From: a virus
DNA length: 64,000 nucleotides
Reading direction: 5' to 3' (one strand)
IMG/VR virus record: IMGVR_UViG_3300031132_000002
In this document: positions 6,198 to 45,902 of the stretch, piece by piece
Numbering within the stretch: the first letter of the stretch is position 1
Layout: each line of letters begins with the position of its first letter
Program-made: the position numbers and the translations under genes
The notes under the pieces: generated by a model
Told to the model about the DNA's origin: nothing
The model's input: only the letters and a program-made list of their open reading frames with translations
The model's database searches: none

Positions 6198-6952
6198 AGG
6201 TTCTCCATCTTAGTATCATAATACCAGATCTCTCCGTCCGGTTCGATAACCGCTACGGTTAGTTTTCCAGTGAAGATACCCCCTGTATCAATATATGCCC
6301 GATTACCGTGAATCACAGGATCTTTCACACCTGTATGTCCGTGGAAGATCATCTCTACTCCCAGAACATCAGGAAGAACATACCCTTTCTCAATTCCACC
6401 AATAATGGTGCGGTTCCAACAGAGCATTTCACCAATCTCTGCCTTAGCCTGCTCAAACTGATCAGGGTAGTTGTCCTTTAGTACTTGTTCCAATGCCAGT
6501 GGCGGGACAGATTCCAACTCCAGTGGGTACTCCGCGTGTGTAAAGGCATACATTCTGCCATTCACCTGCATATTAATTAGGTAGTAAGACTTATCTTCTA
6601 GCATAACTGCCAGACAAGTGCTTCCTTCCTCTCCCACTTCTTCCAGAACAGTTTTTCCACCATTCTGTAACCACCCAAGATAATTTCTCTGATCGCCTTC
6701 CAGCAAACCTTTGATCATCATATCATCGTGGTTTCCACGAACGACGAAAGAGTTTTTGGTGTTTGCGGCGTATTCAACGCACTTAAAGTTCTGCGTACCA
6801 CGATCTGTAAGGTCTCCGACAAACACTTTAATATCTTCGTCATTGATTCCTAAATCGTGAATTGCTTTTTGCACCAAATGCCAGGCACCGTGTACATCTC
6901 CAAAAACCAGAACACGTTTATCTTCGCCAGCTTGTACATTGAGTTGAAACAT
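6194..6952 (-). CDS. Ser/Thr protein phosphatase (lambda NinI/PphA-like metallophosphoesterase)
   Basis: GDVHG, VGDLTDRG, RGNHD, HGHT, IDTG. Confidence 0.92.
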   Translation of the reverse strand: MFQLNVQAGEDKRVLVFGDVHGAWHLVQKAIHDLGINDEDIKVFVGDLTDRGTQNFKCVEYAANTKNSFVVRGNHDDMMIKGLLEGDQRNYLGWLQNGGKTVLEEVGEEGSTCLAVMLEDKSYYLINMQVNGRMYAFTHAEYPLELESVPPLALEQVLKDNYPDQFEQAKAEIGEMLCWNRTIIGGIEKGYVLPDVLGVEMIFHGHTGVKDPVIHGNRAYIDTGGIFTGKLTVAVIEPDGEIWYYDTKMENL

Positions 6953-8531: not shown

Positions 8532-8941
8532 TCTACACCCTTACCTTCATAGGTTTCTTCATTGAAGTCACCGAGGAATCTAATGAGAGTAACACATCTT
8601 TCATCAATGTCAATGGATTCCTTGTCACCAAACTTAGCCAGCAGAGCTTCGAACATATCCTTACCTTGCATCGTTTGATCGTGGAAGTCCATCAAATTAT
8701 AGTTTACCACGGAAATCTTCTCCATTGCAAGAAGAGTATCTAGGATCTCTGTCTTTTTAGGATTATTCAATAAAGCCTCACCGAAAACGTTTGTATAGTT
8801 GTCGTAGAAGCCTCCGAAAATACCTTTGCCAGGCACCCAATACATTTTACTTGCCATAGCCTGCTTAAGATTGCGGCTTAGCTTAACCGTCTGTTCGAAG
8901 GAGAATAACTTCTCCTCCACCTCAGTTTTTGTGATTAACAT
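8516..8941 (-). CDS. hypothetical protein
   Basis: ORF with AAGGAG SD. Confidence 0.7.
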   Translation of the reverse strand: MLITKTEVEEKLFSFEQTVKLSRNLKQAMASKMYWVPGKGIFGGFYDNYTNVFGEALLNNPKKTEILDTLLAMEKISVVNYNLMDFHDQTMQGKDMFEALLAKFGDKESIDIDERCVTLIRFLGDFNEETYEGKGVECPQL

Positions 8942-13128: not shown

Positions 13129-14006
13129 CTCAATGTCTCCCCAAAAAGTTTAAGAATGTAAGTTCCGTATTCAACCTTAGCCATTTGCTGCCCTTTAGCT
13201 AATAGTTGGTCACGACTAATCCATCCGTTTTTATATGCAATTTCTTCCAGACAAGCGATATAAGTCCCTTGCTGTCGTTGTAGAGTTCTAACATACCCTG
13301 CGGCTTCAAGTAAACTCTCGTGAGTTCCTGTATCTAACCAAGCAAACCCACGTCCTAAAATCTCCACATCTAATACTTCATCTTGAAGATATGAGTTATT
13401 AATATCAGTGATTTCCAATTCTCCTCGGTCAGAAGGTCGAACTTCCTTTGCACGATCAACTACCGTATAATCGTAGAAGTATAATCCTGTGACTGCACAG
13501 TTGGACTTAGGTTCGTCTGGTTTTTCTTCAATACTAGTTACTTTGTTTCTGTTGAAGCCTACGACACCGAAACGCTGAGGATCTTTAACTTCGTAACCGA
13601 ATATTACCGCACCACCTTTATGTTCTACTTGTTCCCTTGCTTTCCTTAACTTTCCGCTAAAGCCTTCACCGAAGAAAAGATTATCACCTAAAACAAGAGC
13701 AACATCATCTCCATCAATGAATTCTTCCCCAATAATGAAAGCCTCTGCAAGCCCATTAGGTTCACTTTGAATTGCATAGGAGATACTTAATCCCCAATCG
13801 CTACCGTCTCCCAGAACATCCTCGAATGCAGATTGATCCTTAGGTGTGGTGATAACTAAGACTTCACGAATACCTGCCAGCATCAAGACTGATAATGGAT
13901 AGTAGATCATTGGTTTGTCGTACACAGGAAGAAGCTGTTTACTCACTCCCTTCGTGACAGGATGGAGGCGGGTTCCACTCCCGCCTGCCAGAACAATTCC
14001 TTTCAT
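13125..14006 (-). CDS. rmlA: glucose-1-phosphate thymidylyltransferase
   Basis: [50 protein letters not shown]. Confidence 0.97.
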
Positions 14007-37166: not shown

Positions 37167-37383
37167 GATTGAACACAAAAGCCCTACAGTGAAAGAGAAG
37201 TTAAATCGAATTAAGTCAGGTTCTGTTTTCCTGATGGATAACGATTTTTATATCAAGTCGGATGAGACGGACGGATATGGTGATCCGCAATGTGTTCGCC
37301 TACGAGATGGCTGTCTTGTGTCACCAGACGAAGAAATGATTGTCCAGGTAGCAAATTCTGTTAAGATGGAGGTGTCATTATGA
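37159..37383 (+). CDS. hypothetical protein (paralog of previous gene)
   Basis: Shared motif pattern; GGAGG SD. Confidence 0.75.
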   Translation: MIEIEHKSPTVKEKLNRIKSGSVFLMDNDFYIKSDETDGYGDPQCVRLRDGCLVSPDEEMIVQVANSVKMEVSL

Positions 37384-38270
37384 GAATCACAATCCGCACT
37401 ATGTTAGGATTTAATCTTCAAAGTATCGAATGCCCGATTAAGAGTTTCACTTTCTCGGCTGGTGAGCAGCACGTAGTATTACCGAAAACACTTCAAGATA
37501 TCAGTTATGGCGATGAAGTGGTGATTGAAACTGAGATTCGTAGCGCAGAAGACTTTATGTTACTGGCTATGGTGAAAGACGCTATAACCCGCTGTGCGCA
37601 CTTCCACATTCCAGTTAAGCTGATTATGCTTTACGTTCCTTACGGTCGTCAGGATCGTGCCTGTGAAGCAGGAGAGGCATTCGGGCTTAAGGCTTTTGCT
37701 TCTATGCTTAACGCCTTGAAGTTTGACGAGGTTGTGATTGCTGATCCTCACAGTGATGTTACTCCGGCTCTGATTGAACGACTGACAGTTATCCCCCAGG
37801 AAGAGATTGTTAAGCAGATGCTTGGCGTTTACATTCCTAAAGAAGATTTCGCTATCGTTTCTCCTGATGCCGGAGCGTTGAAGAAAATCTTCAAGGTTGC
37901 TAAGGAATTAGGTGGTGTTGATGTGTATTGCGCAGAGAAGATTCGTGATACATCTACTGGTGCAATCAAACATACAGATATCTCTGTCAAAGATTTTAAA
38001 GGTCAGAATCTGATTATGGTGGATGATATCTGTGATGGCGGCTACACCTTCATTAAGCTGGCAGAACTGCTTCGAAGCCGCAACGCAGGACGTATCGATT
38101 TATACGTCACACACGGTATCTTCTCTAAAGGCTTACGTCCTCTAGAAGGAACTATTGATCGGGTTCACTCTCTCAACGTCTGGAAAGACAACATTGAAGC
38201 TGATCAGGATATCTTAGTGTTGAACCAAGGTATCAGTCGCAAAGTTTTACTGTCAAAATACTACAACTAA
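37380..38270 (+). CDS. ribose-phosphate pyrophosphokinase-like protein (probable ADPR-PP synthetase, Adps)
   Basis: FSAGEQHV, YVPYGRQDR, DPHS, SPDAGA, VDDICDGGYTF, VTHGIFS; adjacent to NAMPT-like gene. Confidence 0.9.
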   Translation: MRITIRTMLGFNLQSIECPIKSFTFSAGEQHVVLPKTLQDISYGDEVVIETEIRSAEDFMLLAMVKDAITRCAHFHIPVKLIMLYVPYGRQDRACEAGEAFGLKAFASMLNALKFDEVVIADPHSDVTPALIERLTVIPQEEIVKQMLGVYIPKEDFAIVSPDAGALKKIFKVAKELGGVDVYCAEKIRDTSTGAIKHTDISVKDFKGQNLIMVDDICDGGYTFIKLAELLRSRNAGRIDLYVTHGIFSKGLRPLEGTIDRVHSLNVWKDNIEADQDILVLNQGISRKVLLSKYYN

Positions 38271-38333
38271 GTATTGACAATAAGAAGGGAGGGTGTAGAC
38301 TCTCCCATATCAAAAACAAAGAGGAGAACAATT

Positions 38334-40037
38334 ATGGCTAAGCGCATTAAAAACCCACTGTTTAACACTGACGGCTACAAACCATCTCACATCGATCAGT
38401 ATGCCGATAATATGGATACGCTGTTTTCAAACTTCACTCCTCGTGGTGATAAGTATTTCACACACTACGCACCAAACGCACCGCGTGGCGTTATCTCTGC
38501 TGGTGTTCAGGGTGTTCTCAAAGAACGTCTGATTGACGACTGGAACGAAAACTTCTTCTCTCGTCCGAAGGATGAAGTGGTGGCTGAGTACTCGAAGTTT
38601 ATGACTCGTTACAACGGACGCCAGAACCGAACTGATCATATTGAAGCACTGCACGATTTGGGTTATCTGCCTCTATCAGTACGTGCGTTGCCGGAAGGTG
38701 TTCTGTGTCCTATCCAGGTTCCAGTGTATACAATTCACAATACCGTTAAAGGCTTTGCGTGGTTGGTGAACTATCTGGAAACTATGCTGAGTGCAGAAAC
38801 TTGGAAGACAATGAATAACGCAACCATTGCTTTCCAGTACCGCCTGCTTGGTGAACAGTACGCAGATTTGACCTGTGATTCTAAAGATCACCTAGCATTC
38901 CAGTTCCACGACTTCTCTGCTCGTGGTTTGTCTGGTATCGATGACGGATATCGCTCTGGCTTTGGTCACTTAATGTCATTCAAAGGTACTGATACTCTTC
39001 GTGCTGTTTGCTACGTAGATGATTTCTACTACGGAGAAGATACTTTTGTTGCTGGGAGCATTCCTGCATCTGAGCACAGTGTTGCAACAACTAATATTAG
39101 TGATATTCTCGCTAAACTGATGGTTGAAGTTGACGGCTTCGCAGCAATGAACATTGATGAACAACGATTCTTCTCTGAACTGGAGTTCTTGCGTAAATAT
39201 CTGACTCAGATTTACCCTGATGGCATTGTGTCTTATGTGGCAGACAGCTACGACTATTGGGCGCTGGTTACTGAGATCCTTCCAGTTCTGAAACAAGAGA
39301 TTATGGAACGAGATGGTAAACTGGTAATTCGTCCAGATAGCGGCAAGCCCCTGCATATTATCTGTGGATACTATGTTGAGACCTTTGCTTCTCGTGAGAT
39401 CTTTGAAAACTCAAGTCGTGCTCTTCTCACCGAAGTTGCATACATCGCAGATGAACAAGTTTACCTGCGTATTCAGGACAACGAGCAGTATGGTTACGAA
39501 GAGTACGTGGAGATTCCTCGTCACGAGGCCGTAGGTACTATCCAGGTGTTGTGGGAAGAGTTTGGTGGTAAAATCAACTCTAAGGGCTATAAAGAGTTAG
39601 ATTCTCATATTGGACTGATTTACGGCGATAGCATCACTGTTTCTCTGACCAAAGAGATCTTTAAGCGCCTGGAAGGAAATGGTTTTGCATCAAGTAACAT
39701 TGTTCTGGGTGTTGGTAGCTATACTTACAACTACAGCACTCGTGATACCTTCGGGTTTGCTTGTAAAGCTACAGGTTGTGTTATTGATGGTAACGAGATT
39801 CTTGTGAGCAAAGAGCCGAAGACTGATCCAGGTAAACGTTCTGCTCGTGGATTCTTAGCTGTTGTGGCAAATCCAGAAGGTGATTTGACTCTTGAAGATG
39901 GTTTGTCTTTGTCAGACGTTTCTCACCCTAAGAACGAATTGCTGGAAGTTTTCCGTGATAGTCTGATGGTGATTGATACTAATATTGATGAAGTACGAGC
40001 CACACTGGACGATACGGTACGTAAATATCTTAAATAA
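38334..40037 (+). CDS. nicotinamide phosphoribosyltransferase-like protein (probable Namat)
   Basis: TDGYK.SH, HDFSARG, GTDT, PASEHSV, DSYD, RPDSG, LIYGDSIT, RDTFGFA.KA; start after GAGGAG; own TTGACA promoter at 38274. Confidence 0.92.
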   Translation: MAKRIKNPLFNTDGYKPSHIDQYADNMDTLFSNFTPRGDKYFTHYAPNAPRGVISAGVQGVLKERLIDDWNENFFSRPKDEVVAEYSKFMTRYNGRQNRTDHIEALHDLGYLPLSVRALPEGVLCPIQVPVYTIHNTVKGFAWLVNYLETMLSAETWKTMNNATIAFQYRLLGEQYADLTCDSKDHLAFQFHDFSARGLSGIDDGYRSGFGHLMSFKGTDTLRAVCYVDDFYYGEDTFVAGSIPASEHSVATTNISDILAKLMVEVDGFAAMNIDEQRFFSELEFLRKYLTQIYPDGIVSYVADSYDYWALVTEILPVLKQEIMERDGKLVIRPDSGKPLHIICGYYVETFASREIFENSSRALLTEVAYIADEQVYLRIQDNEQYGYEEYVEIPRHEAVGTIQVLWEEFGGKINSKGYKELDSHIGLIYGDSITVSLTKEIFKRLEGNGFASSNIVLGVGSYTYNYSTRDTFGFACKATGCVIDGNEILVSKEPKTDPGKRSARGFLAVVANPEGDLTLEDGLSLSDVSHPKNELLEVFRDSLMVIDTNIDEVRATLDDTVRKYLK

Positions 40038-42814: not shown

Positions 42815-42902
42815 TAAATAGTTTAAAATAGTTGTTGACAGATAATCAAATACGTGGTACATTGGTATTAAGTAGAGAAGATTGTTAGTTAACAACTACT
42901 TA

Positions 42903-43615: not shown

Positions 43616-43691
43616 GCTTGTATAGCTCAGTAGGTAGAGCAGTTGCCTTGTAAGCATCAGGTCACGAGTTCGATTCTTGTTGCAAGCACCA
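43616..43691 (+). tRNA. tRNA-Thr(TGT)
   Basis: GTTGC-CT TGT AA-GCATC; CCA. Confidence 0.92.
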
Positions 43692-43705
43692 AATTATCAA
43701 GCGAA

Positions 43706-43756
43706 CGCGCCTGATGAGTCTTTGAAATAAGACGAAACGCTGTGAAGCGTAGCGCG
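43706..43756 (+). ncRNA. type I hammerhead ribozyme (predicted cleavage after GUA, position 43751)
   Basis: Stem I CGCGC/GCGCG; core CTGATGA; stem II GTCTT-TGAAAT-AAGAC; GAAA; stem III CGCT-GTGA-AGCG; U16.1-A17. Confidence 0.9.
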
Positions 43757-43767
43757 GAGTATCCCAA

Positions 43768-43876
43768 GAAGGGGAATAACTGGATACCAGTAGAGACTTC
43801 TCTAAGTATTTTCCAACGAGAATATTTAGAGCGTGGGTGTGCAATGTCTCTATATGCAGCACACAGCTAGCCCTTC
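43768..43876 (+). ncRNA. putative pseudoknotted structured RNA
   Basis: GAAGGG/CCCTTC; ACTGG-ATA-CCAGT; AGAGAC/GTCTCT; 14-bp hairpin 43800-43831; crossing pair GTGTGC/GCACAC. Confidence 0.6.
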
Positions 43877-43882
43877 AACATT

Positions 43883-43959
43883 GCGAGTTTAACTCAGTCT
43901 GGTAGAGTGTCTGCCTTCCAAGCAGTTCGTCATCGGTTCGAATCCGATATCTCGCTCCA
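43883..43959 (+). tRNA. tRNA-Gly(TCC)
   Basis: CTGC-CT TCC AA-GCAG; U73; CCA. Confidence 0.92.
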
Positions 43960-44058: not shown

Positions 44059-44130
44059 GAAGCTATAGTTTAATGCAAAACTTGTCACTTCCGAGATTGA
44101 CAAATGAAGATTTATCTTCTAGCTTCACCA
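44059..44130 (+). ncRNA. degenerate tRNA-like RNA
   Basis: GAAGCTA/TAGCTTC-A-CCA; D arm GTTT/AAAC; TTGTCA-10-nt loop-TGACAA; T arm GAAGA-TTTA-TCTTC lacking TTC. Confidence 0.65.
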
Positions 44131-44136
44131 AATTAT

Positions 44137-44283
44137 CGGATAGATGCAATATGAAAGTGCAGCGTTAGGGTTCGCAAGTTGGCGCTTGTTTGACTAACAA
44201 AACATAATTAGTATGGGCATTTCAAGAATACATAGCCTCGCCAAAGGAGATGTAAGAAGGTTCGACTCCTTCCTGTTCGCCCA
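44137..44283 (+). ncRNA. tRNA-like RNA (~147 nt) with multi-stem insert
   Basis: CGGATAG/CTGTTCG-C-CCA; GAAGG-TTCGACT-CCTTC T arm; internal hairpins. Confidence 0.65.
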
Positions 44284-44289
44284 AATGAT

Positions 44290-44540: not shown

Positions 44541-44903
44541 ATGAAAAGTTGTGAGTATTGCAAGAAAGAATTTGAAGTAGTGCGAAAACACGGAGGAAAC
44601 AACAGAACATTTTGTTTTGATTGTGTTCCAGAAGGCTTAACCAAGAGCGAGAGAGCTAGAGTACATCAAGATATTCGTGGTATCAGATCTAAGCTTATGA
44701 AATTAGAATTAGGTTGTCACGTATGTGGTTATAAAAGATGTTCCGAGGCTTTAGAGTGGCATCACCCTACAAGTGATAAACTTCACGATCCTTCTAACGC
44801 TATTAAGAGATCTTGGGAAGCATATTTATTAGAGATTAAAAAGTGTATTCTTCTTTGCTCAAACTGTCACAGAGAAGTGCATTCAAATATTATCAGTCTG
44901 TAG
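44541..44903 (+). CDS. HNH (homing) endonuclease
   Basis: CEYC..CFDC; CHVCG...LEWHH...KCILLCSNCHREVH. Confidence 0.9.
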   Translation: MKSCEYCKKEFEVVRKHGGNNRTFCFDCVPEGLTKSERARVHQDIRGIRSKLMKLELGCHVCGYKRCSEALEWHHPTSDKLHDPSNAIKRSWEAYLLEIKKCILLCSNCHREVHSNIISL

Positions 44904-45240: not shown

Positions 45241-45322
45241 AGCGGTATAGTGAAACGGACATATAGATCACACTAGGCTCATACCCTAGTAATTGCGGGT
45301 TCGACTCCCGCTACCGCAACCA
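45241..45322 (+). tRNA. tRNA-Met(CAT), initiator-like
   Basis: A1/A72 mismatch; CTAGG-CT CAT AC-CCTAG; enlarged D loop; CCA. Confidence 0.85.
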
Positions 45323-45420: not shown

Positions 45421-45565
45421 GTCGTAGTGATACAAAGCGAAAGAAAGATGGTTACGAGATACTTCCTCGACGGAGGTGGTGATGTGATTAATCGCTGGAG
45501 TAATGAGGATCACAGGTGGAGTTGATCGCCTTCTCTGAGAGGTTCGAATCCTTTCTACGATGCCA
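45421..45565 (+). ncRNA. tRNA-like RNA (~145 nt) with multi-stem insert
   Basis: GTCGTAG/CTACGAT-G-CCA; AGAGG-TTCGAAT-CCTTT T arm; hairpins ACTTCC/GGAGGT, GGTGAT/ATCGCT, GATCA/TGATC. Confidence 0.65.
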
Positions 45566-45870: not shown

Positions 45871-45902
45871 AAGCCCCTGCCCTTTTAGGGTGGGGGTTTT
45901 TT
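45871..45902 (+). terminator. rho-independent terminator of the RNA cluster
   Basis: CCCCTGCCCT-TTT-AGGGTGGGGG plus T-tract. Confidence 0.85.

Follow-up and report, generated by a model that had tools for sequence, protein, structure and literature searches.

A type I hammerhead ribozyme in a phage tRNA array and the conserved double-pseudoknot RNA that follows it

What would a hammerhead ribozyme do in the middle of a phage tRNA array? The question is raised by a 64,000-nt stretch of viral DNA (IMG/VR virus record IMGVR_UViG_3300031132_000002; the whole stretch is called here the window), in which an earlier note, made from the sequence alone, had recognized a complete hammerhead at 43706-43756 and had placed the virus among the enterobacterial myoviruses. 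Two roles had been offered there: to split the polycistronic pre-tRNA independently of host RNase E, and/or to create the 5′-OH end of a structured RNA located downstream. The assignment of the virus agrees with the gene content of the window, which includes PRPP synthetase, NAMPT, an HNH endonuclease in the tRNA array, tail fibre, spanin, large terminase and portal. Judged by its large terminase, the virus is nearest, among cultured phages, to Klebsiella phage 05F01 and to phAPEC8-like myoviruses (71-79% amino acid identity). Concerning the role, the data presented below indicate that the hammerhead is probably a part of a composite double-pseudoknot RNA gene, of which it would make the 5′ end, and not a tRNA device.

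The hammerhead element and its setting in the tRNA array

The type I hammerhead ribozyme at 43706-43756 (plus strand) was recognized from its sequence, a descriptor search, relaxed Rfam searches, an alignment and its predicted fold. A re-reading of the sequence confirmed the positions reported earlier for the three stems, the core, the GAAA and the GUA triplet. Stem I, of only 5 bp, is formed by CGCGC (43706-10) and GCGCG (43752-56), and is followed by the core CUGAUGA (43711-17), by stem II (GUCUU/AAGAC, 43718-22/43729-33, with loop UGAAAU) and by GAAA (43734-37). Stem III is A-CGCU/AGCG-U (43737-41/43746-50, with loop GUGA), where the last A of GAAA (A43737) pairs with U43750. The cleavage triplet GUA, with H17 = A43751, sets the predicted cut at 43751/43752. 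The element thus displays the features of the class: the core residues C3, U4, G5, A6, N7, G8 and A9 together with G12, A13 and A14, the A15.1-U16.1 pair, an NUH triplet with A as H, and three helices with covariation support, the ends of the transcript leaving the junction via stem I. The location on the tRNA-coding strand, 14 nt past tRNA-Thr, was also borne out by ARAGORN and Rfam. The tRNA-Thr (UGU) occupies 43616..43691 (plus strand; Rfam tRNA, 67.5 bits) and is separated from the hammerhead by the 14-nt spacer AAUUAUCAAGCGAA (43692..43705, plus strand), and the tRNA-Gly (UCC) called by ARAGORN and Rfam at 43883..43959 (plus strand) starts 126 nt 3′ of the hammerhead.

A relaxed hammerhead descriptor (stem I of at least 4 bp, stems II and III of at least 3 bp, G-U pairs allowed) was run on both strands of the 64-kb window, where its sole match was 43706-43756; dinucleotide-preserving shuffles of the window gave no match (0/300). 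When the isolated hammerhead was folded, the minimum-energy structure was the three-way junction (-19 kcal/mol, z -2.1). The comparison with the Rfam hammerhead models proposed in the earlier note gave a divided result. In the search of the window at gathering score the hammerhead remained below threshold. Under relaxed conditions, sub-threshold matches were obtained: the core and stem II matched Hammerhead_3 (RF00008) with 29-32 bits (E 2e-5 to 3e-3; gathering 48.5), and a lambdoid homologue was matched full-length by Hammerhead_1 (RF00163) at 24.7 bits (gathering 34). The shortfall in score is due to the short stems and loops, the core positions being free of mismatches.

Hammerheads cleave fast at physiological Mg2+ when loop II makes a tertiary contact with stem I. 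No covarying partner for loop II was found in the alignment, where this loop varies across subgroups (UGAAAU, AUGAG, AGUAACGC, UAAU); the contact might be supplied by the attached RNA body. Self-cleavage after A43751 is predicted for the window element, but with a stem I of only 5 bp and no such contact found, its activity at cellular Mg2+ is only putative. Another feature of its fold concerns the spacer, in which UUAUCA (43693-43698) is complementary to UGAUGA of the core (43712-43717) and is paired with it in the full-length MFE fold. The spacer recurs in the relatives L009, L095 and L101, with a similar U(U/C)AUCA standing 5′ of the hammerhead despite different upstream flanks. The modelled pairing may represent a competing inactive fold of the hammerhead, a folding attenuator or a coincidence.

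The conservation of the element was analyzed in an alignment of 18 distinct hammerheads, taken from unrelated phage contigs and representing both gene orders of the RNA described below. The 11 core positions and the A15.1-U16.1 pair were invariant in 18/18. The catalytic sites that vary are N7 (U, C or A) and H17 (A or C), exactly the positions that hammerhead catalysis tolerates changing. Outside the core, only 6 of about 40 columns were invariant, and compensatory changes occurred in each of stems I, II and III. Eight pairs showed double changes, versus 3.7 ± 1.1 in shuffles and no more than 5 in slid controls, and 95.8% of the cells were paired, versus 21-50% with the partner strand slid. 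The stems are thus kept and covary among the 18 homologues; a lack of conservation in relatives had been named in the earlier note as grounds for giving up the assignment. In about 1 Mb of retrieved loci, every match of the descriptor abuts the conserved GGAGUAUCC and none occurs elsewhere, the predicted cut position being constant at 5 nt before the conserved GGAGU. Changes in the window-type lineage touch only N7, H17, the loops and stem pairs that have been compensated, as selection for catalysis would produce. As far as can be judged from sequence, 43706-43756 is a genuine type I hammerhead of the active type.

The array in which the hammerhead lies has promoter-like sites upstream, at 42835 and 43521, and its only strong terminator-like site at 45871-45899, a layout that fits a single transcription unit. 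Several other elements of the region were observed. At 45241-45319 (plus strand), Rfam recognized a tRNA (52.6 bits; anticodon loop CUCAUAC) missed by ARAGORN, which is probably a tRNA-Met or tRNA-Ile2 with an enlarged D region. At 45421-45557 (plus strand) there is a tRNA-like RNA of about 137 nt, called by neither ARAGORN nor Rfam, with an insertion of about 60 nt, acceptor-like ends (GUCGUAG / CUACGAU-GCCA) and a canonical T arm (GGUUCGAAUCC). Between two tRNAs, a stretch of 160 nt (44128-44289, plus strand) lies just downstream of a weak tRNA match of 36 bits (44059-44127). On its 3′ side it contains the T-arm-like GAAGGUUCGACUCCUUC and then the acceptor-like CUGUUCGCCCA, without a recognisable 5′ half; a tRNA that is split, degenerate or interrupted by an intron may be present here. 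The HNH homing-endonuclease ORF inside the array (44541-44903, plus strand) encodes 120 amino acids (PHROG 2255, E 4e-21). About 2.3 kb upstream of the array, the adjacent genes of PRPP synthetase and nicotinamide phosphoribosyltransferase (37380-40037, plus strand) form an NAD salvage pair.

The double-pseudoknot RNA downstream of the predicted cut

The predicted mature RNA that begins at the cut comprises about 131 nt (43752..43882, plus strand). Its structure was derived from alignment A1, which contains 13 window-type copies, with pair counts; an nhmmer search of the window gave a single match to the RNA body (E 1e-34). From 5′ to 3′, the first element is hairpin A (43759..43787, plus strand; GUAUCC 43759-64 / GGAUAC 43782-87), which is invariant in the window-type copies and whose helix covaries in hammerhead-less relatives. 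The loop of this hairpin carries the invariant GAAUAACU (43774-81) and, just before it, the strand GAAGGG (43768-73), which pairs with CCCUUC at 43871..43876 (plus strand) to give the pseudoknot PK1. The PK1 pairing is seen in the covariants GAAGGG/CCCUUC, GCCGGG/CCCGGC, GGCGGG/CCCGCC, GUAGGG/CCCUAC and GCCAGA/UCUGGC. Helix a (43791..43852, plus strand; UAGAGAC 43791-97 / GUCUCUA 43846-52), with compensatory changes in 5 of its 7 pairs, encloses hairpin b (43800-13/43818-31, plus strand; compensatory changes in 7/14 pairs of A1), the invariant CGUGGG (43832-37) and the 5′ strand of helix c. The latter helix (43837..43864, plus strand; GUGUGC 43837-42 / GCACAC 43859-64) crosses helix a, producing the second pseudoknot; two of its six pairs covary in A1, and all four outer pairs do so in alignment A3.

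Over the whole structure, 95.6% of the cells of A1 were paired, and double changes were found in 20 pairs, versus 7.1 ± 1.7 in shuffles and no more than 6 in slid controls. Hardly any variation is seen in the unpaired joiners (CGYGGAG, GGGGAAUAACUGG, CGUGGG, UGCAG and A-N-CU-N-G). The signature blocks of the family, i.e., CGUGGG, CGYGGAGU and GGGGAAUAACUGG, are present at 43752-43882 together with both pseudoknots, in circularly permuted order, and one joiner of the window RNA is AGCUAG instead of the CAUCUNG type of the family. These family features recur in the at least 122 distinct copies described below, the hammerhead-less ones included.

Searches with Rfam 15, at gathering and at relaxed scores, gave no match to the RNA body in the window, lambdoid, hammerhead-in-loop or hammerhead-less copies, and no description of the RNA, either alone or fused to a hammerhead, was found in the searchable literature. 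An HDV-like or theta fold was considered for the RNA body and rejected because the topology differs: the order of elements, A(PK1)A′ a(b)c a′ c′ PK1′, is not that of HDV, with its nested double pseudoknot P1-P1.1-P2-P3-P4 cleaved at the 5′ end of P1, and P3/L3 would not fit into the 8 nt that separate PK1 from helix A. The HDV-family models gave no match in the window even at E up to 10. An association of drum RNA with hammerheads was also rejected, as the source paper describes terminator-linked motifs without a hammerhead link.

Gene orders, carriers and the purpose of the cut

In a scan of metagenomes and IMG/VR, the RNA was recovered in at least 122 distinct copies; the counts of the family are biased lower bounds because the pattern scans demand exact signature words. 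Among the matches listed, most copies have a split gene order, where the half containing CGUGGG, helix c and a′ comes first, followed by either a 3-5-nt loop or a hammerhead, and then by the half containing GGAGU, hairpin A and GAAUAACU, with a terminal helix in the place of hairpin b. This order accounts for at least 73 copies, with the hammerhead, if there is one, in an internal loop. The strict descriptor was passed by 38/73, and about 58/73 of the listed copies keep CUGANGA and GAAA, the others being hammerhead-less or decayed (U4 to C in L192; remnants in L161, L168 and L118). No cultured phage with the split order was found. The window-type order, with the hammerhead first, accounts for at least 39 copies with 12 distinct hammerhead sequences, and at least 10 more copies, mostly truncated or variant, are of unclear order, with 3/10 passing the strict descriptor. 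In the window-type order this descriptor was passed by 37/39, a proportion whose contrast with 38/73 does not consist of independent observations, since the window-type copies are closely related.

In the hammerhead-less copies, a linker of 3-5 nt joins the PK1 strand to CGYGGAG exactly at the hammerhead site. These copies refute the notion that every form of the RNA depends on a nick or a 5′-OH at this point, and indicate that the cut is not universally required. From the comparison of both orders, the window gene is circularly permuted, its RNA being opened precisely at the linker/hammerhead loop, so that here the hammerhead would be needed for the 5′ end. The RNA can thus work with this loop closed, nicked or opened, and, as the contrast between the orders suggests, the hammerhead is kept intact where the 5′ end falls there.

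Two copies with altered hammerheads were noticed apart. One viral contig (L185) contains two RNA copies 4.8 kb from each other (8571-8598 and 13389-13416), one with a canonical and the other with a degenerate hammerhead. In L118, an IMG/VR record, a copy on the minus strand (near 6697-6756) is directly flanked by tRNAs on both sides, and its linker holds a 17-nt remnant (AUCACGAGUCC...) that resembles a decayed hammerhead core.

The existence of hammerhead-less and decayed relatives (L161, L168, L192 with its U4 to C change, and L118), together with the short stem I and the sub-threshold Rfam scores, could also be explained if the hammerhead were an inactive or neutral passenger, i.e., the relic of a loop insertion that does not cleave in the window lineage. 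However, the core is perfect in the window, the changes among window-type copies keep to the tolerated sites, the loops and compensated pairs, and the gene order of the window offers no other visible route to the 5′ end of the RNA. A passenger is for these reasons the least probable of the interpretations considered.

A sensitive blastn search with 43695-43882 retrieved the hammerhead and the 125 nt downstream of it (about 73% identity) from four cultured, unrelated phages. They were the T7-like Enterobacter phage SDFMU_EhYP, which has the unit, without a tRNA, between its capsid and tail genes, the Pectobacterium phages Pappous and Taid, and the Dickeya phage Setonix. None of the cultured relatives of the window phage was matched by blastn, so that the four unrelated carriers were the sole cultured matches. 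In Pappous, and likewise in Taid, a tRNA-Met stands directly 3′ of the unit. The same succession of RNA and tRNA occurs in the relatives L009, L093, L101 and L102, and in two independent lineages a tRNA-Gly or tRNA-Met begins 2-6 nt past the RNA. Lambdoid prophages carry the unit (about 73% identity) in the late leader, without a tRNA, atop a long hairpin located downstream of tR′. Among complete E. coli genomes, 15/5426 contain the hammerhead-RNA unit, and PGAP has placed an annotation at the unit in 0/15. Three 19-mer matches in species-representative genomes were rejected as chance matches inside coding sequence.

As to phage lambda itself (L083, J02459), the same long closing hairpin is found at 388-463 of the locus (lambda 44787-44862), with a tip of only 37 nt. 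The tip contains UGAAGAGUC, a 9-mer identical to part of the core and stem II of the SDFMU_EhYP hammerhead. Lambda's 37-nt tip may be a deletion remnant of the hammerhead-RNA unit.

The distribution of carriers bears directly on the first of the two roles proposed earlier, according to which the hammerhead would be a processing device of the tRNA operon, splitting the Thr/Gly pre-tRNA without RNase E in the manner of theta ribozymes. The hammerhead lies inside the tRNA array, on the tRNA strand, its cut would physically separate both halves of the array, and about 20% of the listed family members have a tRNA within about 250 nt. Against such a purpose, the same unit occurs between capsid and tail genes of a T7-like phage and in tRNA-less lambdoid late leaders. 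Conversely, the homologous tRNA array of Mydovirus lacks the hammerhead-RNA element, its tRNA-Gly following directly after tRNA-Ile, and the cultured relatives of the window phage are unmatched. In addition, the cut falls 60 nt past tRNA-Thr and leaves a trailer with a cyclic phosphate that still needs trimming, which brings no benefit for tRNA maturation, and it is the double-pseudoknot RNA, not a tRNA, whose conservation accompanies the cut site. So, splitting of the pre-tRNA finds no support as the purpose of an element that is present in phages and prophages without tRNA arrays, and this interpretation is very unlikely. The second role, a 5′-OH end for the downstream structured RNA, fits the observation that hammerhead and RNA travel together through unrelated phages.

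A survey of the neighbourhood was made by clustering 3225 flanking ORFs from 121 listed loci, with Pfam and PHROGs assignments of the flanking ORFs. The commonest neighbour was the large terminase (18/121 listed loci), mostly just downstream and on the same strand, and small terminase, portal, lysis and lambdoid late genes were also recurrent. No conserved partner protein was found among the 3225 ORFs, nor a recurrent RNA ligase or RNA-repair gene in the 121-locus sample. According to its neighbours, the RNA is typically an element of late-operon leaders or of tRNA arrays.

These neighbours raise the alternative of a cis-acting leader cassette, where the cyclic phosphate and 5′-OH ends and the stable fold would alter the decay or expression of the late transcript, with no free trans-acting RNA. 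It would agree with the packaging genes (large terminase, small terminase, portal) that recur a short way downstream in the same orientation, with the location of the lambdoid copies in the late leader directly after tR′, and with the lack of a conserved partner protein gene in the survey. On the other hand, about 45 single-stranded or junction bases are invariant from marine to enterobacterial phages, which would be needless for a mere stabiliser, and in the window and in Pappous a tRNA lies directly 3′ of the RNA, so that RNase P should detach the RNA from the downstream sequence. A leader cassette is thus considered unlikely, although less so than a tRNA device.

Proposed maturation of the RNA and comparison with known systems

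The preferred interpretation, in which the hammerhead makes the 5′ end of the double-pseudoknot RNA, can be formulated as a sequence of steps. The tRNA array would be transcribed as one unit. The hammerhead would fold once base 43756 emerges and would cleave after A43751; as all its parts are transcribed before the RNA body, it can cut co-transcriptionally. The products of this step would be the tRNA-Thr with a 60-nt trailer ending in a 2′,3′-cyclic phosphate, and the downstream RNA with a 5′-OH. RNase P, acting at the 5′ end of tRNA-Gly (43883), would presumably make the 3′ end and release the free RNA of about 131 nt (43752-43882). The freed RNA would then fold into hairpin A with PK1, the a/c pseudoknot and hairpin b.

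Our best guess is a trans-acting RNA whose binding partner, in the late phase of infection, would be some component of the host or of the phage. A more far-reaching proposal, which is put forward tentatively and seems to us possible rather than probable, is that the RNA of about 131 nt represents a new and widespread phage class that either binds a specific factor or small molecule or is catalytic, at the onset of late expression or packaging, with the hammerhead as its maturation device. The many invariant unpaired bases and the two pseudoknots are hallmarks of RNAs with demanding functions.

To our knowledge, thousands of hammerheads have been found in bacteria and phages, almost none of them with an established job. 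The hammerhead studied here is tied to a specific product, the highly conserved double-pseudoknot RNA, and the family provides natural controls, with the hammerhead in a loop, absent, or at the 5′ end of a permuted gene. If the RNA does have a demanding job, this would give a defined biological role to a hammerhead of the bacterial world. Its purpose is directly testable in tractable hosts, namely the E. coli lambdoid prophages and the cultured Enterobacter and Pectobacterium phages. There is also an annotation gap, as the Rfam thresholds miss these hammerheads and PGAP is silent at the 15 E. coli copies. Three points are new for the window: its exact circular permutation, the difference between gene orders in how often the hammerhead is intact, and the neighbourhood of late-operon genes.

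Type I hammerheads of phages and prophages are known from intergenic positions in polycistronic phage transcripts, with a proposed function in transcript processing (Perreault et al. 2011, PMC3088659). The window element shares with the bacterial and phage type I hammerheads (RF00163, clan CL00010) the core, the junction, the open stem I, the NUH site and the phage intergenic habitat. It differs from them in its sub-threshold score and in that no loop-loop or pseudoknot tertiary contact was identified. Moreover, the 3′ strand of its stem I belongs to a conserved larger RNA (CGYGGAG), and the hammerheads of this family are inserted in, or head, a double-pseudoknot RNA rather than flanking protein genes.

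The HDV-like theta ribozymes abut the 3′ ends of gut-phage tRNAs, where trimming of the trailer has been proposed as their function, in a study in which hammerheads are unmentioned (Kienbeck et al. 2024, PMC10879173). In both cases a small self-cleaving ribozyme sits in a phage tRNA region and would produce an RNA end without a host nuclease. However, theta ribozymes are of another class, whereas the window hammerhead begins 14 nt past the tRNA, with its cut at 60 nt past it, and has a non-tRNA partner. The comparison is thus one of analogy only.

Other small, stable non-tRNA RNAs inside a phage tRNA array are the species 1 and 2 RNAs of T4 (rnaC and rnaD), and release by tRNA-processing enzymes is presumed both for them and for the window RNA. 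The T4 region differs in having no hammerhead, and rnaC in having a tRNA-like 3′ part. Homology with rnaC or rnaD was rejected, as the nhmmer profile of the RNA body matched nothing in T4 69500-74500.

Finally, circularly permuted RNA genes are known in the case of two-piece tmRNA and of permuted tRNA or SRP RNA (PMC10085705). The likeness to the family described here is that a single fold is encoded in two arrangements, one of which has its ends where the other has a loop. The difference is that this RNA family is uncatalogued, and that in the window the new 5′ end would be made by a ribozyme built into the gene.
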